Made by a program: the position numbers and the translations under genes | Notes under the pieces: generated by a model | The model's database searches: none | What the model was told of the DNA's origin: nothing | What the model saw: the letters and a program-made list of their open reading frames with translations, nothing else | Shown here: positions 5,227 to 44,694 of the stretch, piece by piece | Position numbering within the stretch: position 1 is the first letter of the stretch | Layout of the letters: each line of letters opens with the position of its first letter | NCBI GenBank assembly: GCA_963720565.1 | Contig: CAVRFW010000008.1 | Span: forward strand, 32,001-96,000 | Source: Candidatus Bathyarchaeota archaeon | Lineage (GTDB): Archaea; Thermoproteota; Bathyarchaeia; Bathyarchaeales; Bathycorpusculaceae | Reading direction: 5' to 3' | Length of the DNA stretch: 64,000 nucleotides

Positions 5227-5385
5227 CAAATGCTGAATTTCGCATTCTGCCACGCTTTTCCGTTCAAAAGAACAAGAACAATCAGATTCATGATTTAACT
5301 GGTCTCTAAAAGATTAGTTCTGATGTTCAATGAAGTTTAGAAGCTGATTGATTTCTAAAAAAACTAAAAAAAGGGTAAGGTGATT

Positions 5386-6018: not shown

Positions 6019-6332
6019 CGATTTTCACCGTTTTCATATTACGCTTGCACATGTTAATAAATTTAATCCCCATATTCGAAAGCTCATTTCAGTTACACAA
6101 AATAACGCAACACTATTAGCAAGTATTGATTGCAGGCTATCCGTCGAGAGAATCGAATATGGAGGAAAGCAAATTTTCCATGCCTTCGTTTTATCTTGAA
6201 AAACAATATGACCGAATGCATACTAAGGATGCGCCCCTGAGGCCTCCCACTCAGACAATTCAGTCAGAAAGCACAGAATAATCGATACAAATAAATTTTT
6301 CACCACACTCAGAAATGTAGCTATCTCCAAAG

Positions 6333-7319: not shown

Positions 7320-7482
7320 ACAAGGCACTCGCTTTTAACGCCATAAAAGAAGAGAGTGCAAGAAGTATTTTGAAGCTGTTTTTCTCATTGATTTCGGTTT
7401 TCGCATTCTGTGTTTGGGCTACGAAACATTTAAGCCTCGAACGTTTGTGTATTTGTGGAATAATTAACATAAGTGACGAAGA

Positions 7483-18219: not shown

Positions 18220-18335
18220 CCGTTTCCCTAGTTAGAGTATTATGTGCAATATAATATTTAGTTGCAGAGCCCAGCCCATGGAAGAATACCGAGAATAGAC
18301 GTCTTCAAGAATAGACTTTTAACGGAATAGGATTT

Positions 18336-18366
18336 AAGAAAAAAGAAAGTTTGGAAAAAGAGAAAA
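18336..18366 (-). terminator. U-rich archaeal terminator after cdhE
   Basis: Minus-strand T-rich tract immediately after the stop codon. Confidence 0.45.
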
Positions 18367-18368
18367 GG

Positions 18369-19805: not shown

Positions 19806-19810
19806 ATCCT

Positions 19811-21037
19811 CTATGGTTTTGCAGAAATCCAGTCAGCGAAGCTGCTAGCGTCAGCTTTCTTGCCGCTTACTAATTGACGGGTCACGTCTTTTAGTGTCTT
19901 CACTGCAGCTGGATGCATCATCATAAAGAGGTCTACACCTGCAAGCAGAAGTGTTAATGCAGTAGTGACTTCCCATAAGGGGCCTCTTAGCTCACGTGGT
20001 TCCCATTCGGAAGACATTTTCAGCCATGCCTCTCGTGCAGCCCAAGCGTTAGTTGTGCCAGAAGACATTGGATGTGCCAGTTCAGCATCACCCATCAATC
20101 CGCCTATTCTTGCCCTTTCCATGTTTGTGAAAGCGTAGTCTAAACCGTAGCCGAGAGCAGCCGTTGTCAAGTCCATAACTATGTCTTCTCTGCCTAGATA
20201 ATCATATAATCGCCTGTTAAGCTCGCGGGCTAAGTTCAAGTCCATTGGAGTGAAAGACAAAGCCACGTGCCCGTTTTTCTTCACGAATTTTGCGCAACGT
20301 TCGACATCCATGTCAGCAGTTAACGAACTAATTAGGAAACGCTCCCCAGCAAAGGTTTCAGTGATCTCTGCGAAAACAGCAGCGTCCTTTACTGGGTCAC
20401 CGCAACCGCCTATAACGAGCGGCACATCAACTGCTTGGGTGATTGCCTCAACAGTCTTCACAGCATCCTTGGGAGATGCATTCTTTAACAATGGATCAAT
20501 GCTGATTAGATGAACCGTTACCATGTCTGCTCCGAACTTATCAACTGCAAGTTTTGCCCAGGCTGCAGGATCTCCGACTACCTCCTTCACGTGCATCTTT
20601 ACAGCCTTGGACAATGGAACTTCCATGTCGAAGACGTCCAAGGTGACTACTGGAGGATGCGGCATTGTACTCTCAAACGAGTAGAAAGCAGGAGAGGTTT
20701 CACCGCCGATTGTGATTGATCTTCCGCGCGTTCCACCTTCACCTCTGGTGGCGCCCAGTTTTACTTCAGCGATTTTACCGGAATAAGTCTCGATAGGGTA
20801 AGCAAATTTTGTTGAGACAAGTTGTGCAGGTTTTCCCTTCAGGGCTGCGGCTCTTAGCTGAGGCATTAGTTGCCTCGGCAATGAGCCAGATTCGAGCCAT
20901 AGTTCTAGGTCTTTGACTTCTAGCTCGAAGTCTTCAAGCTCGATCTCCTGAGCCTTCGCGAGAAGGTCAAGAAGGTCTGGGCTGATTGCTAAGCCGGAGC
21001 CTTCGTCTTTCTTCTTTTTTTCGGCCACAGGCTTCAC
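19811..21037 (-). CDS. cdhD: ACDS delta subunit (corrinoid Fe-S protein, small)
   Basis: EVKLGAT...GGTR, TTAALGYGLDY, NAWAAREAW, MMMHP. Confidence 0.96.
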   Translation of the reverse strand: MKPVAEKKKKDEGSGLAISPDLLDLLAKAQEIELEDFELEVKDLELWLESGSLPRQLMPQLRAAALKGKPAQLVSTKFAYPIETYSGKIAEVKLGATRGEGGTRGRSITIGGETSPAFYSFESTMPHPPVVTLDVFDMEVPLSKAVKMHVKEVVGDPAAWAKLAVDKFGADMVTVHLISIDPLLKNASPKDAVKTVEAITQAVDVPLVIGGCGDPVKDAAVFAEITETFAGERFLISSLTADMDVERCAKFVKKNGHVALSFTPMDLNLARELNRRLYDYLGREDIVMDLTTAALGYGLDYAFTNMERARIGGLMGDAELAHPMSSGTTNAWAAREAWLKMSSEWEPRELRGPLWEVTTALTLLLAGVDLFMMMHPAAVKTLKDVTRQLVSGKKADASSFADWISAKP

Positions 21038-21038
21038 C

Positions 21039-22460
21039 TTAGTTTTTCTTCTCGCTTTTCGCCGTGCGGATTATGACTTTTTTGGCGTATATTTTTGCGT
21101 CCTTTAGGATTATCTTGAAACCGCCTGCCATTATTGGCAGAGTAGCTGCTGTTGCCACGGGCATCATTACGCCTTCCTCTTTTGCTTCTTCAGGTGCGGC
21201 CTCTTCAACTGCTGCTGTCTCGGCCCATCTTTTCACGACAGGGTGGTTCTTCTCTTTCAAGAAGGCCTTCAAGGAATCGATGTTTTGCGCGTCTTCCTCA
21301 GTAGCTATTTTGTCCACAACTTCTGCTGGTACGAATTCTTTTACGCGTTCCTTTACTTCTTTTGGCAACCAGACTACACGGTTCCATCCGTCGTCTGCTG
21401 CAAGGAACTTCTTTGAGCGCATATACTCGATTGACATTCCATGGAAACCGTCTATCTGCCGTCCGCCAGCCGTTGAGTCAGCGAGAGTCGAGAATGGCAG
21501 ACCGTTGACCGTCACACCTTTGAAGCTTCTGTTGACCACGCCAAAACCGTCGACTTCTGGAATGTAGAAAGCTACCGCTTCAAAGCAGCCGCATGAAGTG
21601 TGTGGATGGTCAAAAGCTGTGTAGAGCCAGACTTGGTTAACTTCGCCCAAAGTGCGTTTCTTGACAGTTTCGTTTATGCCTGAGAACTCGCCTTTTTCCG
21701 CGTTAATCAGTTGGCCTCTTTCAATGGCGAAAACTGGTCCTTTGGGATCTATTTGTGCTGATGCTCGGCCGTCAAACCAGCTGATTGCACCGCAATTGGA
21801 GTAGCGTTGAGGTGTGATGACACATACGTGGCTAGGAGCGAATGATTGGCATAGAACGCAACCGTAGAATTTGTCAACTTCCTCATCTTTGAGGCCTCTG
21901 GCTTTGGCGTCTCTTGTCTCGTAGGCTTGCATGGCTTCGGGATACATTTCTTGTACTTTGGCTGGGTCGGTGATGAAGGTTATCTGGACTTTTTCGATTA
22001 TTGGAAGTTCGCTCTTGAATAGTGTGTGAAGAACTTTGCCGATGTACTCGAAAGAGTTCAGGCCCTTCTGGAAGGCTTTCTTGCCTAAGCGCATCCAGAT
22101 GTCGTAGCGCTGGTTAAGGTGCATGAAGCCTTCGATGTAGTTCAGATAGCCGTGTATACGCCTTTCGATTACTCCTTCAAGCTGCGGGTCAAGCGTTGAT
22201 CCAGCGGCTTCTACTAGAATTCCAAGAGGTGAGACACTACCTTCTTTCATGTCTTTGATGTCAGGGCCGATTATCGTTACTTTTCCATCTTCAACTTCGT
22301 CTAGGGGTCTTACTTTGGCTAATTCGAATTTTTCTTTGACTGTTGGACCACCGAGTTCTACTTGCATGTCGTTTCTGCGGATGCGTTCGCCCTCGTATAT
22401 TACGCCAACATCTACTGGTATGTCTTTAAACATTGACATTTTTTTATTGTCCTCCTTCAA
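21039..22460 (-). CDS. cdhC: ACDS beta subunit (acetyl-CoA synthase)
   Basis: YEGERIR, ERRIH, CVLCQSFAPSHVC, HTSCGCFE A-cluster ligands; likely start about 22439 (MSMFKD). Confidence 0.97.
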   Translation of the reverse strand: MKEDNKKMSMFKDIPVDVGVIYEGERIRRNDMQVELGGPTVKEKFELAKVRPLDEVEDGKVTIIGPDIKDMKEGSVSPLGILVEAAGSTLDPQLEGVIERRIHGYLNYIEGFMHLNQRYDIWMRLGKKAFQKGLNSFEYIGKVLHTLFKSELPIIEKVQITFITDPAKVQEMYPEAMQAYETRDAKARGLKDEEVDKFYGCVLCQSFAPSHVCVITPQRYSNCGAISWFDGRASAQIDPKGPVFAIERGQLINAEKGEFSGINETVKKRTLGEVNQVWLYTAFDHPHTSCGCFEAVAFYIPEVDGFGVVNRSFKGVTVNGLPFSTLADSTAGGRQIDGFHGMSIEYMRSKKFLAADDGWNRVVWLPKEVKERVKEFVPAEVVDKIATEEDAQNIDSLKAFLKEKNHPVVKRWAETAAVEEAAPEEAKEEGVMMPVATAATLPIMAGGFKIILKDAKIYAKKVIIRTAKSEKKN

Positions 22461-22986
22461 ACTTTGAAGTCATGACTGTGAGATTGTTCGCCCACTCTTC
22501 CAGAGAGGCATTTGGGAAAGACCAACTTGCGTGAGCGTGGAACAAGTTGTCCAGAGTTATGGTTTTGAGGTCTGGAGCGAAGTGTTTGAGCCCACAGATA
22601 ATCAGTCCCTCCATGTAGTAGGGCATACCTACGAACAATGCTAGGTCGTATGGTCCTTTGCCGTCTAGTCCTTGCCATTCTGGGTCTACAAGCCTGTTGC
22701 CTATGTCCATTGCGGACATGAAGCCAGCCGGGGTGTAGCCGCGTTTAAGGAATTCGCCTACCATGTGGGCTGTAGCGACGACTGGAACTTTGGATGCTCT
22801 TGCGAAGTCAATGAGGTATTCGATGAGCGGTTTGCCTTCCATGAATCTTTCAACTGCGTAGCTTCCGACCACGAGAATTGGGCGTTTGGCTCTTTTCACC
22901 ATGGCGACTACTATTTCTGGTTTCTGAATCGCGTTTGCTTTCTTTGTGGCTGCTATTTCGGCACATTGCCAGGGTTCACATGACAT
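22444..22986 (-). CDS. cdhB: ACDS epsilon subunit
   Basis: KRAKRPILVVG, WQGLDGKGPYDL, LKHFAP; position in the cluster. Confidence 0.95.
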   Translation of the reverse strand: MSCEPWQCAEIAATKKANAIQKPEIVVAMVKRAKRPILVVGSYAVERFMEGKPLIEYLIDFARASKVPVVATAHMVGEFLKRGYTPAGFMSAMDIGNRLVDPEWQGLDGKGPYDLALFVGMPYYMEGLIICGLKHFAPDLKTITLDNLFHAHASWSFPNASLEEWANNLTVMTSKFEGGQ

Positions 22987-22992
22987 TCATTA

Positions 22993-25341
22993 TCACTCCT
23001 TGATTTTTCTAATCATTCTTGGAAGCAAGGTCGGATCCGGAATCACGGTTTCTTTCCAGCCTTTTTCATCAAGTATCTTTGTTATTTCATCTTTCATGGT
23101 CATCGGCACATCTGCCATGGTGCGTACGAATCGGTGCACGTCTTCCGGCATGACTCCGTAGAGACGCTTGCTCAGGTCAATATAGTGTGAGAGTTTGATG
23201 CTGCGTCCTTTCCAGGTGTCGTTCGGTCTGATGCATAATTTCGCGATGGCAACCATGGCTTCTTCAGGCGTTTCAACGGTTTGGAACAAGTGTTCAGGTG
23301 CAGGACCGATGTTGACTTTGTCGCCTGTGCGGGCGTCGTAGACTTCCCAGTCTTCGGGCTTGTCTTCTCTGCCAAGGAGCATTCGGCGATATTTGCTGCC
23401 ATGTGGGCCGACTAGGACTGGAATTCCTAAGCGCCAGAATCCTGCTGCAATAGCTGCGGCTTTCTGTGAATATGCGCCCCATGCTAGACCTACTGCGCCA
23501 ACGCGGTTGTATATGTAATCTGCTATTTCTTCGTAGTTGCCTCGGAGGCTGCGTTTAGCGAAGATATTTGCCACTTTAATGGCTGCGCCTGCAATGTGCG
23601 CGTTGCTGACACAAGAACCCGTATTAAGTACGCCTCCAGCTTCGAAGCCACCAGGGAATTCCTCATAAAGACCCTGACCGTCCGAATTCTTATAGGAACC
23701 TGCTGACATGGCTGCACACCCTGAAGTAACTACGATGTAACGTCTTTTTGCAAACTCTCTGCATATGTCATAGACAGCCTTGCCGCCTTTCGGGTAGTTG
23801 CTGCATCCTACGACAGCAAGAATACCTGGGATTTCCCCGAGAACGATTGGGCTACCAACATTTCGGATTTCTGTGTCTTGAACAGCTCCGCGACCGCAAC
23901 GACACAAGTTCGTTTCTTCGGTCATTTGTTTTTCTCCAGCTTTCACAATGAAGCTGTGTATCATAAGTTCCTCTGGACATGCTTCTTCACAGCGTCCACA
24001 TCCGATACAGTATTCGTACAAGTCTGTCAGTTCAGCCATTGACCCCTCCGCTGCTGCTTTCAGGGCTTGCGGTATTTTGAGGTCTTGAGGACATGATCTT
24101 CGGCAAAGGTTACATTGTTTGCAGGTTTTGGCAAGGCTCTTGATTTCCTGAACTTCTGGGAGATTCTTGAATTTCTTGCGAATTGGCTCCATCTTTTGAG
24201 CGACTTTAACCGCAACCTCCCCAACTTTGTCTGGGTCAAGAATCAGGACACCAGGGACTTTGCCACTTACTAGGTCGGCAACTATTTCGTCTGCGGGGTC
24301 GTTTGTGCGATTCTTGAAGCCCATGCAGTTTTTCTCTGATGCAGCTATAACCGGGGCTCTAGCACGAGTTGCTTCGTCGGCAACATCTGTTCTGACGCAT
24401 TGCTCGTCCAAAACCACTACATCAGCAAAACCACTTCTCAAGAAACGCAGTTGCCAAGAGATTGGACCGACGATTCTTCCTCGGTTGTGGTATCTTGTGA
24501 TATCGTGCGCGGTGCAACACAAGCCAACAACCTCTATCTTATCATCTATTTTGTTGTCTCTTGCATAGTCAATAATTGCTATCGAGGGAACAACATTGTG
24601 ACCAATGCACATAACCACTGGCTTTGATTTGTCTACTGTTCCGATACCCAGTGAAACAAGAGGAGCTTCAGGTTCGGCTTTGGGAAAGCCAAGAGTGGAA
24701 ACCTGAGCGATATCGCCGACTTCCATTCCCACATGGTCAATCATACCAACATGGAATGCTTTTGATTCAAAATCTAAATTGTTACCTTCCTGCCCAGTGT
24801 GAGCAACAGCAACTGTCTGAGTAATTTGCTCTTCGGCGTATTCTAAGACTTCGTCCAAGTCTCCAAGGGTTTCAGGTTTTATGCCTGTAACAAGACGGGT
24901 TATGGGAGCTTCAACTTTCACGTTTAAGCCACCGATGTCCAAGGGATATCTTCGACCGTATTTGTCGATCAAGTGATGAAGCATGTGCCGAGCATGAGCC
25001 GTGTGAGTCGCGGCGCCAATGCAACAAGCTATGAGCACGATACGTGATGACTGGGCAGCCATGTCTAAGCCACAGGCGCCACGCTTTCCAGCTGTCAAAT
25101 CGCATTTGCCAAAAGTGCATAGACAGCACAAATCACAATCAGGCATGTAGAATGGTTTGTATCTGTTTAGGAGTTTTAAATCCCAATCTCTAAGGGTTGA
25201 GAGTGAAGGTTTAGGTGTGGGACCCATAGGTTCGGTCCAGCTGTCGTCGACAACTTTGCCGATGTTTAGTTCAAGATTTTTAATAAAACTAGTGTTGGTC
25301 TTCATTTCGCCTATTTTTACGCGCACATTTTTAGTGGTCAA
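22993..25341 (-). CDS. cdhA: ACDS alpha subunit (CO dehydrogenase)
   Basis: MGPTPKP, CDLCCLCTFGKC, GHNV, GLCCTAHD, two ferredoxin motifs, GSCVSNAH, SQKAAAIA. Confidence 0.97.
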   Translation of the reverse strand: MTTKNVRVKIGEMKTNTSFIKNLELNIGKVVDDSWTEPMGPTPKPSLSTLRDWDLKLLNRYKPFYMPDCDLCCLCTFGKCDLTAGKRGACGLDMAAQSSRIVLIACCIGAATHTAHARHMLHHLIDKYGRRYPLDIGGLNVKVEAPITRLVTGIKPETLGDLDEVLEYAEEQITQTVAVAHTGQEGNNLDFESKAFHVGMIDHVGMEVGDIAQVSTLGFPKAEPEAPLVSLGIGTVDKSKPVVMCIGHNVVPSIAIIDYARDNKIDDKIEVVGLCCTAHDITRYHNRGRIVGPISWQLRFLRSGFADVVVLDEQCVRTDVADEATRARAPVIAASEKNCMGFKNRTNDPADEIVADLVSGKVPGVLILDPDKVGEVAVKVAQKMEPIRKKFKNLPEVQEIKSLAKTCKQCNLCRRSCPQDLKIPQALKAAAEGSMAELTDLYEYCIGCGRCEEACPEELMIHSFIVKAGEKQMTEETNLCRCGRGAVQDTEIRNVGSPIVLGEIPGILAVVGCSNYPKGGKAVYDICREFAKRRYIVVTSGCAAMSAGSYKNSDGQGLYEEFPGGFEAGGVLNTGSCVSNAHIAGAAIKVANIFAKRSLRGNYEEIADYIYNRVGAVGLAWGAYSQKAAAIAAGFWRLGIPVLVGPHGSKYRRMLLGREDKPEDWEVYDARTGDKVNIGPAPEHLFQTVETPEEAMVAIAKLCIRPNDTWKGRSIKLSHYIDLSKRLYGVMPEDVHRFVRTMADVPMTMKDEITKILDEKGWKETVIPDPTLLPRMIRKIKE

Positions 25342-25385
25342 TATGGAACCTCCGTAAAGGTTTCGATTAGTACCAACAAGACAGT

Positions 25386-25400
25386 CTTTTTAAACTTTTC
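25386..25400 (-). promoter_or_regulatory. Putative BRE/TATA promoter of the cdh operon
   Basis: Minus strand gaaaag-tttaaaaag upstream of cdhA; cggaggt SD-like sequence before the start. Confidence 0.5.
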
Positions 25401-25484
25401 CAGAAGCCATAAACAAAAGCTATGATGGGTGAATCGAAAAGGAGTCTAAGTCGGAAGAATGTGAAAGTTGCAGACGCCTTGGAT

Positions 25485-26249
25485 TCACATATAGCCTGCG
25501 GCTTTCAAAATCTTTTTTACAGAAAGATACGCTGGGTTGTCAGAGGGCAGATCAAGCAAGGACTTGCCGGTAAGAACATAATCGTCTAGTTGCTCGTCGG
25601 CAAATATTTTTCCGAGATACTTGAACTTCAATTCGGTTTCTGCTTTGCTACCCAGATTTGCAGGGAATCTATAGCCACCTACGAGGTAGAAATTCTCAAA
25701 CGTCATATCAACCTCTTTGGCAATCCGGTGCGCTCGTCTAACGTGATCCAATGATTTCTTTGAGTGGTCTAGAATGTCAAGAATGTCATCGACTTTTGAT
25801 GTGATGCGCCTGTTAAGATGCTCAAGGCCGGCAGGGGAGTCAATCAAAACATACTTGTAGTTCTTGGTCAAAGATGCTAGTGCTCCTTTCAGGGCGGAGT
25901 TTGGCATGCAGTAGCAACCTTCGACCCATTTTGTGCCTACAGCTAGAAAATCGAAGTTGGGGCTTTCAAACAGACCGTTACTCCATATCTTGCTCTCTAT
26001 CCTTTCAGTTGGCGCTACTCCTACAGTTGTACCTCCTTGCTCGATGAACGTGGTCACAAGCAGTTCCGAAATGGTTTTTTTGCCCGCTTCTCTAAGGTCA
26101 ATTCCAACCATTTCAGCGAGATTCTGGTCGGGATCAGCATCTACCAGCAGTAGCGGAGAGTAACCAGCTTCAACAAAGCTCTTTGCAACCAAAGCTACGA
26201 AACTGGATTTCCCAGTTCCTCCCCTTCCGATTGTTACGATGGTTTTCAT
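25485..26249 (-). CDS. cooC: CooC/AcsF-like nickel-insertion ATPase (paralog 2)
   Basis: GRGGTGKS, DADPDQNL, GCYC, DSPAGLEHLNR. Confidence 0.88.
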   Translation of the reverse strand: MKTIVTIGRGGTGKSSFVALVAKSFVEAGYSPLLLVDADPDQNLAEMVGIDLREAGKKTISELLVTTFIEQGGTTVGVAPTERIESKIWSNGLFESPNFDFLAVGTKWVEGCYCMPNSALKGALASLTKNYKYVLIDSPAGLEHLNRRITSKVDDILDILDHSKKSLDHVRRAHRIAKEVDMTFENFYLVGGYRFPANLGSKAETELKFKYLGKIFADEQLDDYVLTGKSLLDLPSDNPAYLSVKKILKAAGYM

Positions 26250-26285
26250 TCAAACAACCTCTAATCATTATGTGCTAATTCAATT

Positions 26286-27065
26286 TTAGATGCTCTTTTT
26301 AATAAACGCCTCGCATAGCCCGTCGATGACTTCTACGGCTTCAATTTCTTTTTTCATAAGAGGTGTTTCTCCGCGCATATCCGCGTCAGTCACTCTTGGG
26401 TCAAATGGGATGAGAGTGAGGAGGGACAGACCGTTTTTCTCAGCGAAAGTGCGGATAGCGGTCTTCTGAGCTTCATTCATAACCCTATTCCCAACAAGAT
26501 AGAGCTGCTTCATTTCAGCCTTTGAGGCTAGGTCATAAATGTGCTTGGCAATCTCCAGAGATTTTAAATTTGAGTCAGCCACTATGAGCAAGGCGTCCAC
26601 CTGTTTTGCAGTACCTCGACCTATATGCTCCACGCCCGCTTCCAAATCTAAGACAACAGCTTCATTTCTGTCGACTATCAAATGGCGCAGGAGAGCTCTA
26701 ATAACAGCGTTTGGAGCGCACATACAACCCGATCCCATCGACTTCACCGTGCCCATTACAATCAAATTCACGCCAAAAGGAGTACTTACAGAATATTCGC
26801 GGACTATATCGTCAACTGTAAATGATAAGCGGTAAACTCCTGAATAGCCTGTGCTTGTCTTGGAGTCAACCAACTCTTTGTTTTCCGATATGGGTACTAT
26901 CTTACGGGCTTCTTCAGCGGATAAGCCCAAGGTTAAGGCAAGATTCGGTGAAGAATCAGCGTCTATTGCTATAGTTTTTAATCCTCTCTGAGCGAAACCG
27001 CGCGCAAGACCCGCTGCAATCAGGGTTTTGCCGACTCCACCCTTACCGGAAACTGCAATTTTCAT
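26286..27065 (-). CDS. cooC: CooC nickel-insertion ATPase (paralog 1)
   Basis: SGKGGVGKT, DADSSPNL, GSGCMC, DLEAGVEHIGRG. Confidence 0.92.
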   Translation of the reverse strand: MKIAVSGKGGVGKTLIAAGLARGFAQRGLKTIAIDADSSPNLALTLGLSAEEARKIVPISENKELVDSKTSTGYSGVYRLSFTVDDIVREYSVSTPFGVNLIVMGTVKSMGSGCMCAPNAVIRALLRHLIVDRNEAVVLDLEAGVEHIGRGTAKQVDALLIVADSNLKSLEIAKHIYDLASKAEMKQLYLVGNRVMNEAQKTAIRTFAEKNGLSLLTLIPFDPRVTDADMRGETPLMKKEIEAVEVIDGLCEAFIKKSI

Positions 27066-33042: not shown

Positions 33043-33981
33043 ATGCTCAAAGACGCGATAAAAGATTACGAGTTCAAAAAAGAAATGTCGGCAGACGAGC
33101 TTGTCAACCAGATGGAGGAAGCCTGGGGCTTCACCGCAGGAAAACTTGCTGTTGCAGTGAAGATTATGGAACGCATGATTCAAACGAAGAACTGCAAAAA
33201 GTTTCTTTCTTTCACTGGAAACCTCGTTGCAACCGGCACTCGAGGCGTTTTCAGGGAGCTTGTGAAGAGGAAAATGGTCGACATTGTTATAACTACTTGC
33301 GGAAGCCTAGACCATGACATGGCGAGGTGCTGGAAAAACTACTACAAGGGCTCGTTCATCATGAACGACGCTAAATTGCATGAACAAGGCATAAACCGCC
33401 TTGGCAACGTGCTGGTTCCAAACGACAGCTACGGCACAATAATAGAAGAGAAAATGCAGGCAATGCTGCAAGACTTGTGGAGAGAGGGAATAAGGGAAGT
33501 ATCAGCCAGTCAACTTTGCCGGGAGATAGGTTTACGATGCTGCAACGAAAGCTCGATTCTATACTGGGCAGCCCGAAACGATATCCCAGTGTATGTACCA
33601 GGCATCACCGACGGGGCAGTAGGTTATCAGACGTGGTTTTTCAGCCAAGACCACGACTTCAAGCTCAACTTGCTCAAGGATGAAGGAGAACTAAGCGATT
33701 TGATGTTTACAACTAAGAAAACAGGCGCCCTCATAATCGGAGGCGGAATATCGAAACACCACACCATATGGTGGAACCAATTCAAAGACGGCTTAGACTA
33801 CGTAGTGTACATTAGCACTGCAGACGAGTGGGACGGCAGCCTTTCAGGCGCAAGACCACGCGAAGCAGTTTCATGGGGCAAAATTAGCGAAAAAGCTAAG
33901 AGGGTTATGGTTGAAGGTGACGCTTCGCTGATACTGCCATTGATGACAAGCGCACTACTGGATCGGCTCGGAAAGACTTAG
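33043..33981 (+). CDS. dys: Deoxyhypusine synthase (canonical type)
   Basis: SFTGNL, GINRLGN, TDGAVG, GGGISKHH, DGSLSGARPREAVSWGK with catalytic Lys. Confidence 0.93.
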   Translation: MLKDAIKDYEFKKEMSADELVNQMEEAWGFTAGKLAVAVKIMERMIQTKNCKKFLSFTGNLVATGTRGVFRELVKRKMVDIVITTCGSLDHDMARCWKNYYKGSFIMNDAKLHEQGINRLGNVLVPNDSYGTIIEEKMQAMLQDLWREGIREVSASQLCREIGLRCCNESSILYWAARNDIPVYVPGITDGAVGYQTWFFSQDHDFKLNLLKDEGELSDLMFTTKKTGALIIGGGISKHHTIWWNQFKDGLDYVVYISTADEWDGSLSGARPREAVSWGKISEKAKRVMVEGDASLILPLMTSALLDRLGKT

Positions 33982-35039
33982 GACACGTTTTTGAAGAGCC
34001 AAGACATGTCTGGCGCTTTGCGCTTGATTTTCACTCTTTCGTTGAGCGCGTGCGTTATTAGAGGCAGAGCAATCGTGGCATCGCAATAGCAAACCGCCCG
34101 TTTACCACTTTCACTGTTTATCTTTCCCCAGCTTATCGCCTCTTCCAGTGTACAGCCGCTTAAGCCACCCCATTGGGGCGAGTCAGTTGTAATTTGTATG
34201 GCGTATTTGTGCGGGTAATAGTATTCTTGGAGGCCGTCGCGCAAGTGACCGTTTCTGCCTGGAACGCCTTGATCATTTGTCTTGGGCGATACTGATATTG
34301 CTATTAGTTGCGTAAGGTCCTTGGGGACACCGCCGCCGATGTAGACTACACCGATATCCTTTGTTTTCTCGCCGATGCTTACGAACTGTTCAAACTCTTT
34401 CACAGAATCCAGCATTACAGTGCGTCCGCGGTTCTTTGCAAGTAAGAAGGTTTCTCCATAAGCGCTATCGGTCATGGCTGGGCTGAAGATTGGAACTCCG
34501 TTTGCTGCGGCAACTGCCGTTATGCTGGGGATATTCTTCTTGCCGAGGTATTTTCCCAGCAGGTGGAGAAATTCGGTTGAAGAGTAGGGAAAATCGGATT
34601 TGAGAGTCATGACAAAGTCTGTGACGAGATCTTCCATTTGCCGGTAGTCGGTTTCCTTTCCGAAGACGTCGTAGTACCTGTTCACGTCTGCTTTCAAGAG
34701 AGCCTCATCGTCAACCATGTGGCTACCCTGCCAGTAGCCAAGTCCCATAGCATCAACAATGTCTTCTGAAACATTGGCACCCGTGCTTACGAGAACATCG
34801 ATGAAGCGGTTTTCCATAAGCCAGTTGACTATTGTCCATTGCCCAGCAGTACTTAATGAGCCTGCTATGCCCATAACAATTGTGAGGTCTTTTTCTTCAA
34901 TCATATTTTCCCAGACATCAACTGCTTCACCGAGTTTTCTGCCCTGGTAAGCCGTTCTACCCATTTCAGACAGAAGTTGTGAGACGCTCTTCTCTTTGAC
35001 TTTAATGGGTTCGAGTTTCTTGTTGAAGTATTTGCTCAT
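33978..35039 (-). CDS. Deoxyhypusine synthase-like protein (second paralog)
   Basis: STGANVSED, NRYYD, GGGVPKD, WGGLSGCTLEEAISWGK. Confidence 0.88.
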   Translation of the reverse strand: MSKYFNKKLEPIKVKEKSVSQLLSEMGRTAYQGRKLGEAVDVWENMIEEKDLTIVMGIAGSLSTAGQWTIVNWLMENRFIDVLVSTGANVSEDIVDAMGLGYWQGSHMVDDEALLKADVNRYYDVFGKETDYRQMEDLVTDFVMTLKSDFPYSSTEFLHLLGKYLGKKNIPSITAVAAANGVPIFSPAMTDSAYGETFLLAKNRGRTVMLDSVKEFEQFVSIGEKTKDIGVVYIGGGVPKDLTQLIAISVSPKTNDQGVPGRNGHLRDGLQEYYYPHKYAIQITTDSPQWGGLSGCTLEEAISWGKINSESGKRAVCYCDATIALPLITHALNERVKIKRKAPDMSWLFKNVS

Positions 35040-36349: not shown

Positions 36350-37183
36350 TTGATGTCGGTGACTGTGCCAGAATCTTCAAACCCAGAAGCGTACGTTTTG
36401 CGGATAAGCATAGTTCACATGAAAATCCGCGATACACTAGACGAAAACCTAAAGGCGGCGAAGGCGGGAATTCTCAAAGCTGCAGCACAGAAGCCAGCAT
36501 TTATCGCCCTCCCAGAGTATTTCTCCGTGCCGGGTTGCATGCAGAACTTCACGGACGCAGAAAAAATCTTCCAAGAAACCTGCAAAGACACTTTGGAATT
36601 CCTGACGGAAGTCTCCAGAGAAATTCCAGGAATATACCTCCTCGGCGGAACAGTTCTGGAAAAGGAGGAGGAAAAACTCTACAACACAAGTACTCTATGG
36701 AAAAACGGTGTGCTAATAGGAAAGTATCGGAAAAAAAATCCTATTGCAGCCGAAATAAAAGCGGGAGTGGCAAGAGGCATTCAGGCTGTTGTCATAGAAA
36801 CGGAGCACTGTAAAGTTGGTTTGATTGTCTGTGCAGACATGTTTGACCCGAATCTAGTAAAGCAAGTTGTCAGTTTAGGAGCTGAAGTGATTTCTCTTCC
36901 TGTAGCGGCGATGGGAACACACCCCAGCGTTAAGGGACATCCTTTGACGGAGAAGGTAGCGACTGACAATGGGGTGTTCGTGATCAAAGTTGGGAACGTC
37001 TGTTCCAGCACCAAGGGAGGAAGAAGTGCGGTGATCGCGCCCTGGGGCATACTCGAAGAGGTATCTGACGCGGAGGAAGATTTGATTATAACGGTTGACT
37101 TGGACATGACGAGACTTGATGAATACAGAAAGACTATCAGTAAACCTTGGCCCAGTCATCCACGATCTGGCTCATCTCATTGA
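36350..37183 (+). CDS. Carbon-nitrogen hydrolase (nitrilase superfamily)
   Basis: Glu-Lys-Cys triad: LPEYF, YRK, IVCAD; GRSAVIAPWG. Confidence 0.9.
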   Translation: MMSVTVPESSNPEAYVLRISIVHMKIRDTLDENLKAAKAGILKAAAQKPAFIALPEYFSVPGCMQNFTDAEKIFQETCKDTLEFLTEVSREIPGIYLLGGTVLEKEEEKLYNTSTLWKNGVLIGKYRKKNPIAAEIKAGVARGIQAVVIETEHCKVGLIVCADMFDPNLVKQVVSLGAEVISLPVAAMGTHPSVKGHPLTEKVATDNGVFVIKVGNVCSSTKGGRSAVIAPWGILEEVSDAEEDLIITVDLDMTRLDEYRKTISKPWPSHPRSGSSH

Positions 37184-38021
37184 ATTCATATGTTTTTAGC
37201 CAAGCTCGAAAATCTGTGTTTTTCACTGCAAAGCGACAAATCTGCTTCGCATTCTCGGAATCGTGAACCAAAAATAGAACGCCCTTGAGGTTTTGCTTGG
37301 AAACATAAGCCACAGTCTTCAACAAGGCATCCAGCTTTTCATTGGTTGGCATTTCTGCGCTTAATTCTAGAACAACAGGTTTCTTCAAGATGCGTGTGAA
37401 GTCTCTCGCTAGGAGGTCCACCCAATAGTTTGTTGTATAGTCTCTTGCAGAAAGGGGCACATGGAAATAGTCCACCAGTTCCGCTATCTTTTCAAAGTCT
37501 ATTCCGAAGCGTTCCTTAGCCAGGACAGGGTCGGGGTACATTTCAACCGCAAAGGTTCCCTTAACTAGATCCTTTGACTGTTTTAGGAAACTCGTTATTT
37601 CTTGCGCACGCCATCCCGTCCAGTTTAGTCCGCTTTGCCTCCAGAGTTCTACGCATCGGGGACAAACACAGAATTCTTCTTCTGGGAAGTGGTAAAGGTT
37701 GAGAGTAACGCCTTCAATGTTTTCTTTGTTCAGTTCTTTGATGTAGTCAAAGATTTTTTTTCGGTAGTCAGGGTTTGTTGGGCAAACAAAATCAAAGGGC
37801 GTGTTTACTTTCCGGTTTTTCCTCAGGGCAGGACCGTTTTTTGAAACTGCAACTAAGTTGGGGTTTTCTCGAATGGTTTTTGCGTCACAAAAGCATGTGA
37901 CATCATTCTGCATTTCTTTCGCTGCTGGAAAAACTGAGCCGTCTACCCACTTTGAATAGTAGACATGCATATCGAAACCCTCGACTTTTTCCGGAGTGTA
38001 CGTAACTAAGCCCATTTTCAT
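37137..38021 (-). CDS. Glycoside-hydrolase-like TIM-barrel protein with CxCxxC motif, function unknown (paralog A)
   Basis: CPTNPDYR, FCVCPRC, WRA, KERFGIDF; start set to MKMG at 38021 by alignment with paralog B. Confidence 0.7.
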   Translation of the reverse strand: MKMGLVTYTPEKVEGFDMHVYYSKWVDGSVFPAAKEMQNDVTCFCDAKTIRENPNLVAVSKNGPALRKNRKVNTPFDFVCPTNPDYRKKIFDYIKELNKENIEGVTLNLYHFPEEEFCVCPRCVELWRQSGLNWTGWRAQEITSFLKQSKDLVKGTFAVEMYPDPVLAKERFGIDFEKIAELVDYFHVPLSARDYTTNYWVDLLARDFTRILKKPVVLELSAEMPTNEKLDALLKTVAYVSKQNLKGVLFLVHDSENAKQICRFAVKNTDFRAWLKTYEFNEMSQIVDDWAKVY

Positions 38022-38082
38022 GCTCTTCAACTCATTCGCGCAACAGATATATTCACGCGACTTATTTAGCTGTTGAATCACA

Positions 38083-38289
38083 ATGGAAAAGCACGAGTCG
38101 CCTGTTCTTATCGACTACAAAAAATGCCCGCCGTGTTCAGGACTTATTTGTGTAGGGGTTTGTCCCTTGGGTTTGTTTGAGGCTGGAAAAGGTGGTAAAC
38201 CTGAAATCGTTGACATTGCCTCTTGTACCCGATGCGGCGTCTGTGCGAACTTGTGCCAGAAAAAAGCCATAACAATAAGAGAAAGATGA
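38083..38289 (+). CDS. 2x[4Fe-4S] ferredoxin
   Basis: CPPCSGLICVGVCP and CTRCGVCANLC. Confidence 0.88.
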   Translation: MEKHESPVLIDYKKCPPCSGLICVGVCPLGLFEAGKGGKPEIVDIASCTRCGVCANLCQKKAITIRER

Positions 38290-39422
38290 CCAATCCCTAT
38301 ACGGATAATGGTGATTGCATGAAACAGTTTGATCTGGAAGCTCCTGGAGTAAAATTGATTCTGGAAAAAAATGTGCTTGCAGTGCTTTCCGATTCTCCGC
38401 TAAACACTATCAGTTCCGCCTTTCACAATGGCGGTGGAATAAAGAAGACAAATGCAATACTCAACGTTGAAGTCTTGAAATCGTACAGTGATCGAACCCT
38501 CCACGATGACCCCGAAGCCTACATAATGGAATCCTCAAAAGTTATTGGACTCAACGAAAGCTTCATAGGCATGGTTACTGCAGCTGCAGTCGAAAACTTT
38601 TCAATGGTCTCGAAAAGAGAAGAGGACCTCGGCGTCAACGTTATTGCCACCGCAGCAGATAACGAAGGTCACACCTGCAATCATGCTGAGTCAGCGGGAG
38701 AAAAAATCGAAGTTAAGGTTATTGAGGGAACAATAAACATCATTGCCGTGGTAGACGGGAATCCGACTGAAAGTTGTCTTGCAGGATTAATAATCACCAT
38801 AACCGAGGCTAAAATGGCCGCGCTAAGGGAGCTTGACATCAGAAGTCGATACTCCGGCGATCAAGCAACTGGAACAATTACGGACTCTGTGGTTGTGGCT
38901 GAAACAAACCGGGGAACTCCGCTAGTTTATGGAGGTCCAGCCTCAAAGCTTGGACAATTGGTCGGGTACTGCACTAGAGAAGCAGTGAAAGAAGCAGTAA
39001 TGAAAGCAAGTGAATGTATGCCGGGCAGATCCCTGATTTCAAGGCTAAGAGAACGAAATTTATCAATTGAAAAATTAGCCTCCGAATTGTCGAAAAGTGA
39101 AACCCTGAACCTCGACAAAGAAACTTTAGAATACTACATAGAAAGAACCTTGAGAACCAAACCGGAAGCTGCATGGATTTTAATGGCGGCTGCAAAAATG
39201 GATGAGGACGTAAAAAACAATCTTATCCCGCTCGAGTTCGGCAGAATTGAAGCAGCAAGTAGAAAGTTCGGAGAATTCGTGTTGTACAGCAAGATGCAAA
39301 GTAGTGCCAAATCCGACGTTTCGGAGAATGACGAAGTTAGTTTGTCTCCATTCCTGAAGCAGGTTCTAGTAAATATGGCAAAAGAAGCTCGGAATGAGTC
39401 TAAAACTGAAAACCTTAAATAA
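38286..39422 (+). CDS. cbiZ: Adenosylcobinamide amidohydrolase CbiZ with C-terminal extension
   Basis: SSAFHNGG, GMVTAA, GTINI, TEAK, ATGTITDS; ATGA overlap with the ferredoxin stop. Confidence 0.88.
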   Translation: MTNPYTDNGDCMKQFDLEAPGVKLILEKNVLAVLSDSPLNTISSAFHNGGGIKKTNAILNVEVLKSYSDRTLHDDPEAYIMESSKVIGLNESFIGMVTAAAVENFSMVSKREEDLGVNVIATAADNEGHTCNHAESAGEKIEVKVIEGTINIIAVVDGNPTESCLAGLIITITEAKMAALRELDIRSRYSGDQATGTITDSVVVAETNRGTPLVYGGPASKLGQLVGYCTREAVKEAVMKASECMPGRSLISRLRERNLSIEKLASELSKSETLNLDKETLEYYIERTLRTKPEAAWILMAAAKMDEDVKNNLIPLEFGRIEAASRKFGEFVLYSKMQSSAKSDVSENDEVSLSPFLKQVLVNMAKEARNESKTENLK

Positions 39423-39470
39423 CATGCAAAATTTATTCCGTTAACAAAACAATGGAAAATGGTGTAAAAT

Positions 39471-40370
39471 TTGAAATTCGGTGTTTTTCTATATCAACCA
39501 GAACCCGTTGAGGGAGTTGATTACAATTTCTACCGCATCAAACCAGAATCTGGAACTGTTGGGACGCCAAACCCGAAAATGTACACTAACATCGCATGCT
39601 TTGGCGATAATGCCCTAGCTGCGAAGCGCCCAGAATGGATTTCAACTAGCGCGAACGGCCCAGCTTTCCGCACTAACAAGAAATTCAATCTTCGCTGGGA
39701 TGTGCTGTGTATGACGAACCCGGAAGTCCGAGAGTACAATTTGAAGCTAATTGAAGACTGCGCTAGAGTTACCCCAGGCATAAGCATAAGCAGTCAGCAC
39801 TTCGCTGAACATGCCTTCTGCACATGCCCCCGCTGTGTTGAACTGTGGCGAAATAGTGGATTAAACTGGGTTGATTGGAGAGCCAAGACCGTAACTGAAT
39901 TCCTGGCAGAAGTCCGAGAGCGTGTCGTTAATAAGCCACTGTTCGTAAACTGCCTACCGGACCCATTGCTTGGCAAAGAGCGCTTTGGCTACGACTTTGA
40001 TGCCATGGCAGAATACACGGACTACTTTGTCATTCCGATGTTCTCAAAAGCTTATCCCACGCCTTGGTACTGGGAAACCATAGCCAGAGGGTACAAAAGT
40101 TTCCTGAAAAAGCCAATGTTCGTTAACTTTTACGTCCGAGGACCAGGAGAAACATGGGAAACCGTTGCGACGACTAAACAGATACTCACGGTTGCCACTC
40201 GCGCCGCAAGAACAGGGGTTGACGGAATAATCTTCCTCGCTGAGAAAGCACAGTGGATACAGGAATTCCAGAAGAACGCAGTTGCAGACAAAGAAACCCG
40301 TGAATTTCTCAAAGACCACGGCGGCGACGAAGTTCTAGAGCTTGTCAATCGATGGGAATCGCTGTTCTAG
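39471..40370 (+). CDS. Glycoside-hydrolase-like TIM-barrel protein with CxCxxC motif (paralog B)
   Basis: CMTNPEVR, FCTCPRCVELWRNSGLNW, KERFGYDF; colinear with 37137-38021. Confidence 0.75.
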   Translation: MKFGVFLYQPEPVEGVDYNFYRIKPESGTVGTPNPKMYTNIACFGDNALAAKRPEWISTSANGPAFRTNKKFNLRWDVLCMTNPEVREYNLKLIEDCARVTPGISISSQHFAEHAFCTCPRCVELWRNSGLNWVDWRAKTVTEFLAEVRERVVNKPLFVNCLPDPLLGKERFGYDFDAMAEYTDYFVIPMFSKAYPTPWYWETIARGYKSFLKKPMFVNFYVRGPGETWETVATTKQILTVATRAARTGVDGIIFLAEKAQWIQEFQKNAVADKETREFLKDHGGDEVLELVNRWESLF

Positions 40371-40424
40371 GCGAATCCTCTATTTCTTTCTTTTTTGAAA
40401 AGACGCCAACTATTCTTTTCTTGC

Positions 40425-40841
40425 TTAAGGTTCTTGGTTCTTTACCTTAAGGTAGTGGATTTCCCTATTTTTCATTAAGAACGCGACGAACGATAGAACT
40501 GAAACTATCACAGTCAACGAAATAGTAATTGAAGTAAAGTTAATCCCTATTGGCGAGAGACCTAAGATTAAGCCCACAAGTCCTGCGATGCCAAAACTCA
40601 AAGCAACGGACAACACGACTTCTTCTACTAATTCGAGTTTGTTTTTCTTTGAGAACAGAACGGTGACAAGACAGTAACCGGGCAAAATTGCGATGAATAA
40701 GAAACTAAACACGTAGCGTACAATGAAAAACGAAGAGTCGCTTGGAACAAAATATGCAATCAGCATAGTCAAAACTGTAAATAGAATGATAACGCCGAAC
40801 CAGAGAAGAGGTTTCACTGTTTGTCCTTCATAAAGATTCAA
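40425..40841 (-). CDS. DUF1616-like small membrane protein
   Basis: LPGYCLVTVLF...LELVEEVVLSVALS. Confidence 0.75.
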   Translation of the reverse strand: MNLYEGQTVKPLLWFGVIILFTVLTMLIAYFVPSDSSFFIVRYVFSFLFIAILPGYCLVTVLFSKKNKLELVEEVVLSVALSFGIAGLVGLILGLSPIGINFTSITISLTVIVSVLSFVAFLMKNREIHYLKVKNQEP

Positions 40842-40875
40842 TATTGAGATTTAAGAAAAATAAAGAAAGGAGGTT

Positions 40876-41784
40876 TTAGAGGAAGTTTTTGAAGATTGGA
40901 TGTGTCTCGTCGAGCGGTCTAATATCTAGGTCAGCCATCGCAGATGCAATGTAAGTATCGACTATGGCTACTGCGGGGAAGACCCATTCAGCTTGCTCAG
41001 CGGGTCCGAACATAAGCCAGTTTGCACCTACTGTCTGCATAATCGCGTTTGTGGCAGTAACAGGACCTTTCCTATACTCTTTCGCTACGTTTGCCTTAAC
41101 CCAGCCCATCGTTGTAACGACGTTTCCAGTTCCGAGTCCCGTTGGATGACCAAACCTCTCTTTTATCAGAGGAATAGCTCTGACCGCTGTGCCCATATCT
41201 GGCGCAAATGCCGGAATGGCAGTGTCAATTAATGGTTTGGTAATTCCTGCTTTGTCGGCTAGAGCCAATGCTTCCTGCAGAATTGCAAATTTGCCTTCTA
41301 AGCTGTTGTCTCTCGGGTTGTCGGCAAGAACTATGGACATTTTAATTCCGCTATCTTTCAGTTTTGCCAGCTCAATATCTGTGACGCCTTTGTAGACCGA
41401 GTTGTACAAGCATCTGTCCTGCAGACCCATGTCCTTTGCAAGAGCTGAAGCAGCCATTCGGACTTTGGGACTCATCGCGTCCAGCATTAGTGGAGCGTCG
41501 CTGTGCTTAGCACAGAAATCGATGTATTTTCCAAAAGCCTCTTCGGTGGTTCCGACAATGTCGAAACCGAATGGAACACCACTAATGTCGCTCTGAATCT
41601 GCATTCGGTTAATTATGTCTTCAGCTTGCTGTGCATCAAAAATGCCTTTGTTGGCATCTTGCACCATTTTCTGACCGAGCCAAAAGATAGAGCCGATAAG
41701 AAATGTAGGCAATTCTCCAGGCTGACCGCCAACTTTTACTTTTCCCACATCATAGATGTTTTGTTTCGTGTTGAACTTATTCAT
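40876..41784 (-). CDS. mtrH: MtrH-family pterin:corrinoid methyltransferase
   Basis: VGGQPGELPTFLIGSIF, GIFD, YNS, KPLIDTA, GANWLMFGP. Confidence 0.9.
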   Translation of the reverse strand: MNKFNTKQNIYDVGKVKVGGQPGELPTFLIGSIFWLGQKMVQDANKGIFDAQQAEDIINRMQIQSDISGVPFGFDIVGTTEEAFGKYIDFCAKHSDAPLMLDAMSPKVRMAASALAKDMGLQDRCLYNSVYKGVTDIELAKLKDSGIKMSIVLADNPRDNSLEGKFAILQEALALADKAGITKPLIDTAIPAFAPDMGTAVRAIPLIKERFGHPTGLGTGNVVTTMGWVKANVAKEYRKGPVTATNAIMQTVGANWLMFGPAEQAEWVFPAVAIVDTYIASAMADLDIRPLDETHPIFKNFL

Positions 41785-41804
41785 CTTGCCTCATCTGAAC
41801 GAGT

Positions 41805-42239
41805 TTATTTTTTCTTTCCGGCCATTGCTTTCTTGGCGATTTCAACGCCTTCTTCCTTGTTTTTGCCGAAAAGTGCCCCCATTGCAGTTGCATCTTCCTT
41901 CTTGATTGCAGCGCCGCCCATGATAAGCATAACTTTGTCTTTGAGTCCAGCTGCTTTTAGTGCTTCATCTAGTTTTGCCAAATTGTTCTTTGCCGGTACT
42001 GTGTTTACGGAGAGTGCGATTATGTCAGCGTTTGTTTCTTTTGCTTTGTCAATGAAGACTTGTGGAGCAACACTTTTGCCGACGTCAATAGTCTTGAATC
42101 CCGCTCTTTTTAGTGATCTGCGGACTGCTTCTTTTGCTGTGTCGTGCATGTCTGGTTCGATGTTTCCGATGACAACTGTGCCGATTGGGTTTTCTGGTTC
42201 AGGAGGTTCTTTTTCCATCATAGATTTAAGCCATGACAT
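41805..42239 (-). CDS. Stand-alone cobalamin-binding (corrinoid) protein
   Basis: DMHDTAK (DxHxxG variant), ADIIALS, MGGAA. Confidence 0.88.
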   Translation of the reverse strand: MSWLKSMMEKEPPEPENPIGTVVIGNIEPDMHDTAKEAVRRSLKRAGFKTIDVGKSVAPQVFIDKAKETNADIIALSVNTVPAKNNLAKLDEALKAAGLKDKVMLIMGGAAIKKEDATAMGALFGKNKEEGVEIAKKAMAGKKK

Positions 42240-42365
42240 TTAAACACCACTTTTCCTTGGTTTTTTATACCCTCGCTTTTTATACTCGAATAATGTATTT
42301 AAACTTTGACTCTGAAACGTCCCCATCCATTCAATAACAAAAATGATGATTCGGGAAGACGAGAA

Positions 42366-44694
42366 ATGTCCAAAACGTCGCGTCACTACCTTTTACTGTT
42401 TCTGATTTTTGCATTCTCATTTAGCTATCGCATGCTTCTCATGCACTGGGAAACATACCCGCCCGGAGCAGACATCGGTCTTCACGAAAGTGTAATCTAC
42501 TCGATAATTGGGTCAGGAAATACGAATTTTGCATATAATAACTACCAGATGGGAGGAGGGTTGTCTCTAACCTTCCCAGGATTTCACATATTCGTTTCAT
42601 ACGTGATGATGATGACGGGTATGCCTGACTACTTGGCACTCTCAACAGTTGTTTCATTCTTCTCTTCGTTTATCGTCCTGTGCGCATACCTAATTGCACG
42701 AGTCTTTCAAGGAGAAGCAGCTGCATTAACGGTGGCTTTCCTAGCAGCGATTTCACGCTTTGATATAGAAATGCTGCTTTGGGGCGGTTTCCCCAACGTG
42801 GTAACGCTCATGCTTATGCCCTTAGCGTTCTATCTGTTTATGCAAAGAGAAAGATTCTCCCTAGCTGCCTTTTCTTGTAGCAACCACAATATTGTCAGGA
42901 TCAATCTTTCTGACCCACTCTATTAGCGCAGTTCTCTTCGTTTTGATAACAATTCTCACCGCAGCGTTAGCGACTATTTTTTCGAGACAAGTCGGCGTTT
43001 CAAGAACACATGCTCTATCCTGGGTTTTGCCTCTTTTTCTGGGGGCCCTCATTGTTTTGCCATTCTTGACAGAGGCTGCTGGAGCATATCTGACTAATGC
43101 CAGTCAGCTTAAAGTTGTCATGAGCGACATTCAAGATGCGCTTCTCTCAACGAGAATTCTGCCTCTAGAGTACGTATTGCCTAGTTTCATCTGTATTCCC
43201 CTGTTCTTTCTTTTCTCAAGAGAATACAAAAAGCGGTTTTTCACAGTGCCTTCTTTGCTTCTTGCAGTCTGGGTAGCAGTACCGCTTCTTCTCACCCAAG
43301 GATACATTGTGGGATTCTACACAGATTACAACAGATTTCTGTATTACGTTATTCTCCCAGCCGTGATTCTAATCGCTATGGCAATCGATCACGGTTCCAG
43401 CTTTTTTGCTGAAATGGTAGACATCTATTTGTCCGTGAAAAAGCGAGTAACTACTGCAATAAGCAGCAGCGAATACACTTGTTGGTTAATGCCTTCTCGG
43501 TCACGCAAAACCCTCTATGCATGTTTCTCTTTGGTTCTACTTATCTTAGCATTCTTCGCTGTGCCCATCTTCTTGACCCCCGTTCAAGGGGTAACTATCC
43601 AGAGCTTTTACCAAACTATGAATAGTCCAGAGTATGAAGCCATTGAATGGGCGCGAAAGAACACCGCAACTGATTCGATTTTTGTTTCCGACGCGCTTTA
43701 CGGGTGGTGGTTCTCAGGCTTCGCACAGCGGTCCGTAATAAGCGCCGTTGACCCCCAGTATCTAGCGCTTGCACGCGAGGTTGGACCCGCAGAGTTTGCC
43801 AAGAATTTGCTCGACACAGACTATGTTATAGATAACGGATTGATTCAAGTCCGAGAAGACGGGGGATATATTGGAAGACATAACCCTATGTTTTTGACCA
43901 AGCTTAACTGGACTTATTTTCCTTACGCTTTCCTAAATTTCAACAACGCTGAAACACAAATAACATATCAAGTAAACGGGAATCCTCAGTCTATATGTTT
44001 AGATCAGGTTCCAGTGCGCGAGATGTGGATTGAAAACGACAGCAAACAAGCGACCATTGTTGTAAAAAAGGGAAATGATTTCGTCAATTATACTCAGCTA
44101 GTGTCAATTTACCAAGGACTTAATTTTGTAAACATGTCAATTTCGTTGGAAAGTCAATTAGACTATGTTAGCCTAAATCGGATCGATTTCACGATACACA
44201 GCAAAGGCAGAGTTGTCGGCGAGATAGAATGCAAGACTGTTGGTTTGTTGGATGAAGGCGTGAAGGCATTTAGCCAGTTGATTTTCGATAAGAGACTGCC
44301 TAATAGAGTTGACTGGGATAACGAAGAAAGCCCTGGCATAATAGAACTAGAGTACTACTTGGAAAAATCATCTAAGTCAGAAATCCAGATTTCAGTAGGA
44401 ACCTACTCGGTTACAGATGATTTGAAGTATTACCTAGACAAAGAGATAACAGAGGAATACTTCAGAGAAATAATCAAGAGTAATTTAGATTCGCCTAGAA
44501 AGGGTGGAAACCTCACTATTGCAGCCTTTGACTACAGAAGCGCTATGAAAAACAACTCAGTCACCTATGTTGCGCTTCGCGATTTCGATTTAATCCCCAA
44601 GTTTGTCAAGGATCCGGTTTTTGGTTTGGTCTTTATTAATGATTATGTTGCAATATTTGCTGTGAAAGAAGCTCGACTAAGTGGTGCAGAATAG
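42366..44694 (+). CDS. Large polytopic membrane protein, GT-C-like, with an apparent +1 frameshift near 42865
   Basis: PPGADIGLH loop, many TM helices, soluble C-terminal domain; ORFs 42306-42926 and 42892-44694 join (FSL|PFLVATTILSGSIFLTH) and align with the downstream paralog. Confidence 0.7.

Follow-up and report, generated by a model that had tools for sequence, protein, structure and literature searches.

Methyl transfer to a Co(I) corrinoid protein is the role of the classical methyltransferase 1 (MT1) enzymes, among them MttB, the MtvB/MtoB-type enzymes of the URO-D fold and MtaB. A further MT1, MtgB, is reported to demethylate lignin fragments in Bathyarchaeia (Yu et al. 2023, mLife, PMC10989822). 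As set out in the main text and Table S3 of that paper, the sediment archaeon Ca. Baizosediminiarchaeum ligniniphilus encodes two copies, MtgB_1 and MtgB_2, of about 300 amino acids, which are 44.85% alike and without homology to known MT1s. Their genes follow the order mtgC, mtgA, membrane gene, mtgB_1, mtgB_2 (NODE_47_349-353), the membrane gene lying between mtgA and mtgB_1. Acting alone after purification, with no paralog added, MtgB_2 is reported to convert Co(I)-MtgC to the methyl-Co(III) form when given guaiacol or vanillin, methanol being the stated negative control. The same text describes MtgB as restricted to Bathyarchaeia, names a distant "group 3" with no assay on it, and states that no corrinoid activating component was found in these archaea. 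Here we analyze a window of 64,000 nucleotides from a Candidatus Bathyarchaeota archaeon (assembly GCA_963720565.1, contig CAVRFW010000008.1, positions 32,001 to 96,000 of the forward strand; in our numbering G000:C8:32001-96000, from a genome that is 89% complete), in which two paralogous barrel proteins, barA and barB, are encoded around a ferredoxin and the cobamide-salvage gene cbiZ and next to genes for an MtrH-like and a corrinoid protein.

We conclude that this locus is probably a copy of the published O-demethylase system, with barB likely transferring the methyl group of a methoxyaromatic to the corrinoid protein and the MtrH-like protein likely passing it on to tetrahydromethanopterin. 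This assignment draws on family membership, gene order and predicted fold, with activity taken from one in vitro study of MtgB_2. When the published MtgB_2 cloning primers were searched over 220 loci, the forward primer matched four and the reverse primer one; both match with zero mismatches at the ends of a single gene, L123:10856-11758. We used this gene as a stand-in for MtgB_2 and the adjacent barrel gene as a stand-in for MtgB_1. The two are 44.850% identical, compared with the 44.85% of the paper, and locus L123 has the published gene order followed by cbiZ, a ferredoxin and a barA ortholog. With the MtgB_2 stand-in, barB shares 53.5% identity (E 1e-128) and barA 34% (E 8e-62); with the MtgB_1 stand-in, the values are 47% and 31%, respectively. 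The published MtgC forward primer matches window positions 42216-42239 with three mismatches (0 of 100 shuffles), and the mass of the window's corrinoid protein agrees with the 15.2 kDa implied by the paper. The MtrH-like protein is 50% identical to the product of the mtgA-position gene of L123, and the DUF1616 protein is 38% identical over 53 residues to that of the L123 gene at the corresponding place. The window's MtrH-like, corrinoid and DUF1616 genes are the counterparts of mtgA, mtgC and the membrane gene.

The locus shares further traits with the published one: the barrels show MtgB homology over about 300 amino acids and cluster with mtgA, mtgC and the membrane gene, and they have no Pfam or NCBIfam match to the classical MT1 families. 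Classical MT1 folds are absent among the 50 best fold matches for barB, which does not exclude one, and a profile comparison of the barrel with the neighboring MtrH gave a probability of 0.2%, that is, no similarity. Searches of the genome, at 89% completeness, turned up no member of the RACo, MttB or URO-D families, and the lack of RACo is likewise shared with the published system. The two systems differ in that MtgB_1-clade copies of this genome lie on another contig, the second barrel of the window being the distant barA instead. MtgB gene-cluster identifiers were not found in the one supplement file of PMC11697101 that was searched. Our initial interpretation of the barrels as B12-salvage or glycosidase-like enzymes, under which an MT1 role seemed improbable, was abandoned after the MtgB paper and the primer and homology matches.

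A sequence-only reading of the window had described two paralogs with shared motifs on either side of a ferredoxin and cbiZ. Both open reading frames (ORFs) are present and align end to end (34% identity over 300 residues, E 2e-67), and the bracketed genes belong to PF13187 and PF01955. barA and barB read TCFC and ACFG, CPTNP and CMTNP, and GVTLNLYHF and GISISSQHF, respectively, and both contain FCxCPRCVELWRxSGLNW. The CF listed as a shared motif occurs in both, but its cysteine is not conserved across the family, being valine in 43 of 82 barB-group and 39 of 76 barA-group rows. The reading also placed the MtrH-family and corrinoid genes next to the barrels; genes of PF02007 and PF02310 do follow, with a DUF1616 gene, which it omitted, between barB and mtrH. 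Its suggestion of an MT1 beside a corrinoid protein and an MtrH-like methyltransferase 2 agrees with the report of Yu et al. (PMC10989822), including the in vitro assay of MtgB_2, while the same report removes the claim of an uncharacterised, new module. Specialists gain a confidently predicted fold and a set of candidate pocket residues for an enzyme that was published without a structure. NCBIfam has no name for either barrel, the closest relatives of barB carry Bathyarchaeia titles, and matches in the ESM Atlas are Bathyarchaeia clusters plus one GHL10/DUF4015 cluster. A search of PDB sequences gave no convincing match (best E 0.07 with barB alone, 0.14 with alignment A2), and longer fused forms were absent from 8000 candidates searched with alignment A1, which is weak evidence.

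To place the copies, a tree was built from 31 rows, a subset of 88, under LG+G4; it carries a long-branch warning at the fork between barA and the barB clade. A single clade (support 100/100) unites barB with MtgB_2, MtgB_1 and the unlinked C copies, and the barA clade (clade A, 100/99) is its sister. A grouping of barB with only MtgB_1 can be rejected (p 7.7e-5). The best tree pairs barB with MtgB_2 (73/52), in agreement with the best BLAST match and with the place of both genes behind cbiZ. Two further paralogs lie elsewhere in the genome. The one at C5:389530-390492 (+) falls on the MtgB_1 side of the tree; that at C5:180877-181798 (-), outside the tree sample, is read in two frames with a shift near residue 167 and is either a pseudogene or an assembly error.

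The predicted structure of barB is an eight-stranded barrel (mean predicted local distance difference test score 96.9) without a helix between strands 1 and 2 or 2 and 3. Consistent with the glycoside-hydrolase-like barrels proposed from sequence, a fold search on the barB model, the one examined, returned Cwp19 (5oq2, Z 20.6, root-mean-square deviation 4.1 over 257), PgaB (Z 20.4), a fucosidase and GH42 at the top, all at 15% identity or less. GHL10 Cwp19, the C-terminal domain of GH153 PgaB (6au1, 4f9d) and GH42 (3tts, 1kwk) share the eight-stranded barrel (Z 15-21 over 240-270 residues), whereas barB is only 9-14% identical to them and to DUF4015 relatives, and is predicted to lack the helices after strands 1 and 2. 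All 278 distinct aligned rows share four cysteines, C80, C117, C119 and C122, and in the alignment with GH42 3tts the C...CxCxxC motif falls on the corresponding cysteines of that protein, a zinc-binding motif in GH42. We infer that the barrels are metal-dependent.

This fold, together with a barB score above the Pfam DUF4015 cut-off (31.5 versus 27 bits) and the synteny of the wider region across related genomes, would suit ordinary DUF4015/GHL10/GH42 glycoside hydrolases with incidental corrinoid neighbors. The GHL10, PgaB and GH42 enzymes are reported to use a catalytic acid close to strand 4 and often, as in PgaB and GH42, a Glu where strand 7 ends (PMC5765458). At the positions taken as equivalent by strand order, not superposition, barB has S107/S108 and N219 in 82 of 82 rows, and neither acid is present, so that the pair whose intactness the sequence-only reading had named as contrary evidence is missing; the missing strand-4 acid that it had noticed is borne out in the alignment. 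With the low identity to every fold match and the methyltransferase activity reported for the family (PMC10989822), we regard a glycosidase as highly improbable. barA has N/L at the strand-4 positions and keeps Glu219 at strand 7 in 76 of 76 rows. Position 107 is Asp or Glu in 72 of 75 halophile-type rows and in every Bacillota-type (3) and single-copy Bathyarchaeia (4) row, and an acid is not the commonest residue there in the barA, barB, MtgB_1, MtgB_2 or C groups. Glu219 is likewise kept in the halophile, Bacillota and single-copy Bathyarchaeia groups and replaced in barB, MtgB_1 and MtgB_2. His110 occurs in all barA, barB and MtgB_1/2 rows, in 6 of 12 C rows and in no halophile row.

The main text of PMC10989822 makes no mention of zinc, barrel, AlphaFold, glycos- or cbiZ, and its preprint has none of the words structure, zinc and AlphaFold. 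Among the papers listed by literature searches, no title or abstract opening announces an MtgB structure, and no paper pairing DUF4015 with cobalamin was returned. Relative to the paper's main text, the glycosidase-like fold with four invariant cysteines and the homologs in haloarchaea and Bacillota are new here.

We examined linkage in the best 80 of 115 confirmed relatives from GTDB genomes, which are kin, so that the counts are not independent. The counts among these loci are 77 for cbiZ, 75 each for barA and the ferredoxin, 59 for the nitrilase, 48 for mtrH and 45 for the corrinoid gene. Where enough flank is available, barA accompanies barB in 67 of 68 loci and cbiZ adjoins barB in 67 of 68. 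In 301 genomes of the phylum, 20 matched, 15 of them over full length. We then re-searched 36 of these genomes: G000, all sampled genomes of the order's families f1-f5, and f8. Thirteen have at least three barrel copies, and each of the thirteen also encodes close orthologs of MtgA and MtgC. In two others the barrel is present once, and their MtrH and corrinoid genes are distant ones only. cbiZ occurs in 19, including all 15 with the family and 4 without. In the three barrel-less genomes that have MtgA and MtgC (G190, G258 and G169; loci L221-L223), barA, the ferredoxin, barB and the nitrilase are gone together and cbiZ stays; L221 and L222 retain DUF1616, cbiZ and asnB, and L223 retains cbiZ and asnB. 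These genomes share a genus, and the joint loss may be one event.

The near-constant pairing of barA with barB and their loss together would fit an obligate heterodimeric MT1 with one catalytic and one structural subunit, and the helix-free face in the barB model (strands 1-2 and 2-3) might accept a partner. The two genes are transcribed in opposite directions, other genomes have one, three or four copies, and MtgB_2 is reported active as a single protein (PMC10989822), all of which make such a heterodimer very unlikely.

Another idea, in line with the company of cbiZ, is that the barrels, or barA by itself, work with CbiZ and the ferredoxin on imported B12, processing it or remodeling its lower or upper ligand, O-demethylation being confined to one clade or a side reaction. 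Homologs outside the close relatives lend this some weight. In G037 and G069 (L125 and L126), which are without close MtgA or MtgC, a single homolog sits in a cluster ordered btuF-like, barrel, radical SAM, btuC, btuD and transcribed away from cbiB-cobT-cbiZ-cobS-cobY. In L121, L123 and L127 the barrel cluster has cobS at its flank. The small radical SAM gene (L125:10439-11200) lies directly behind the barrel inside this B12 uptake and salvage cluster in both loci; in L224, a locus without a barrel, a small radical SAM gene adjoins cbiZ (L224:5676-7289), likewise within a cluster for B12 uptake or salvage.

Homologs were also found in Halobacteria, Kyrpidia, Bacillus thermozeamaize and Dethiobacter, with 30-37% identity in Halobacteria and Bacillota. 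As judged by homology, the family is not confined to Bathyarchaeia, and the acid-less clades are seen only there; loose searches for mtgB will also collect barA and acid-bearing homologs. We inspected 84 bacterial and halophile loci, the best 80 of 436 metagenome matches plus four plasmid regions. In four, the barrel stands beside an adenosylcobalamin mutase and MeaB, in one of these with CobA/BtuR. Two halophile loci (L180:2405-13254 and L091:10025-18643) have the mutase-MeaB cluster, the barrel, a thioesterase-like gene and further genes in common, CobA/BtuR being added in L180. In 42 of the 84 loci a pyrI-like gene (a label read from sequence) stands alongside and no B12 gene was seen, and three annotated halophile plasmid regions hold no corrinoid gene. 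A link of the outer family to B12 therefore holds in six loci and not generally, most halophile copies lying outside such clusters. The homologs in B12 clusters, moreover, keep both the strand-4 and strand-7 acids, of which barB has neither and barA the strand-7 Glu only. cbiZ persists where the barrels are lost, and MtgB_2 is reported to methylate MtgC in vitro (PMC10989822). On balance we consider cobamide processing an unlikely role for the window's barrels.

For the O-demethylase assignment, the following mechanism can be proposed. A methoxylated aromatic would bind at the C-terminal barrel mouth of barB, where the conserved His110, Asp46, Arg137, Asp164, Arg171 and Tyr195 could activate the ether oxygen and so allow Co(I) to attack, while the four invariant cysteines would hold a zinc ion as in GH42. 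Co(I)-MtgC would take the methyl group and MtgA would pass it to tetrahydromethanopterin, from which it could enter the carbon monoxide dehydrogenase/acetyl-CoA synthase (CODH/ACS) encoded at window positions 18369-25341. CbiZ would supply salvaged cofactor, and the ferredoxin may help to re-reduce oxidized cobalt, a role proposed since the searches revealed no RACo activator. barA most likely joins barB in this module, where it would act on a different substrate or as a helper. The ferredoxin, too, is best assigned to the module, and it and barA are two concrete candidates for the system's activator.

Several observations weigh against this assignment. The reported guaiacol loss, 14% of 2.3 mM, amounts by our arithmetic to 0.32 mM, four times the 79 uM MtgC acceptor (PMC10989822), and because of this excess the result is not a clean single turnover. 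The published assay covers one paralog, MtgB_2 (PMC10989822). An MT1 role is unlikely for the distant homologs in haloarchaea and beside mutases. barA diverges from barB at many pocket positions, and strict orthology of barB and MtgB_2 is not shown, the node having 73/52 support. The linkage of mtrH is loose: mtgA/mtrH is present in 39 of 55 loci having 7.5 kb downstream, at a median of 3.2 kb and within 1 kb in 9 of 48. Barrels are lacking in 3 of 16 genomes with close MtgA and MtgC, and Bathy-6B is likewise reported to have MtgA and MtgC without the barrel (PMC11697101). A broader scenario, which we put forward tentatively and consider doubtful, is that MtgB was recruited from a glycosidase-fold, zinc-binding family whose acid-bearing ancestral members carry out a step of B12 processing not yet described in archaea and Bacillota, and that barA and the ferredoxin constitute the missing corrinoid activator or repair function.

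The genes of the locus are listed in Table 1. They do not form one operon: barA is on the minus strand, ferredoxin-cbiZ-barB on the plus strand and DUF1616-mtrH-corrinoid on the minus strand. The ATG at 38021 is the most likely barA start, as the alignment with barB and orthologs begins there; it lies 61 bases from the divergent ferredoxin start. The MtrH-like gene scores under the TIGR01114 and NF047990 cut-offs.

Table 1 Genes of the barrel locus in window coordinates.
Feature	Position	Strand	Remarks
Nitrilase-family hydrolase	36350..37183	+	PF00795; runs toward barA; accompanies the barrels, being present in 59 of 80 related loci
barA, barrel of the MtgB family, in the clade sister to MtgB_1/MtgB_2	37137..38021	-	294 aa from likely ATG 38021; longest ORF to 38081
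Ferredoxin, 68 aa, two Cys clusters, 4Fe-4S	38083..38289	+	PF13187/PF00037; divergent from barA
CbiZ adenosylcobinamide amidohydrolase with C-terminal extension	38319..39422	+	PF01955, E 1.7e-43; longest ORF from 38223
barB, MtgB-family methyltransferase 1, probable MtgB_2 ortholog	39471..40370	+	299 aa, TTG start
DUF1616 membrane protein	40425..40841	-	PF07760; between barB and mtrH; matches the paper's membrane gene
MtgA, MtrH-family methyltransferase 2	40876..41784	-	PF02007, E 1e-77
MtgC, corrinoid protein, 144 aa, 15.4 kDa	41805..42239	-	PF02310; bare B12-binding domain

An Rfam scan of six loci for cobalamin riboswitches returned only a T-box and a tRNA. All 18 RNA runs searched contained at most 12% of the words; four correspond to contigs of relatives, in scattered parts, and no inference on expression is drawn. 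The barB-DUF1616 gap (window 40370-40425) is occupied by 1.5-6 kb of unrelated genes in most relatives (L004-L080), and mtrH is more than 2 kb away in 39 of 48 loci, which suggests an insertion hot spot. A second, unlinked short MtgC-like corrinoid gene (57-62% identity) is present in 5 of the 36 genomes (G077, G155, G300, G162 and G176). Divergent from mtgC lies a DUF6541 membrane gene (window 42306-44694) that is split into two ORFs here and forms one 790-residue ORF in L221, possibly through a sequencing frameshift; in roughly half of the 80 loci, this gene and the 766-residue gene next to it come after mtgC. At 17260-27065, 10-20 kb from the cluster, the CODH/ACS genes are accompanied by genes for two CooC-like ATPases and by a luciferase-like gene that probably encodes Mer. 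A cbiB/cobD gene and two genes for B12-binding radical SAM proteins lie at 2366-8877, and 50 of the 80 related loci contain an ORF resembling the latter (labeled from its sequence). Positions 33043-35039 hold two convergent deoxyhypusine-synthase-family genes of different subfamilies.

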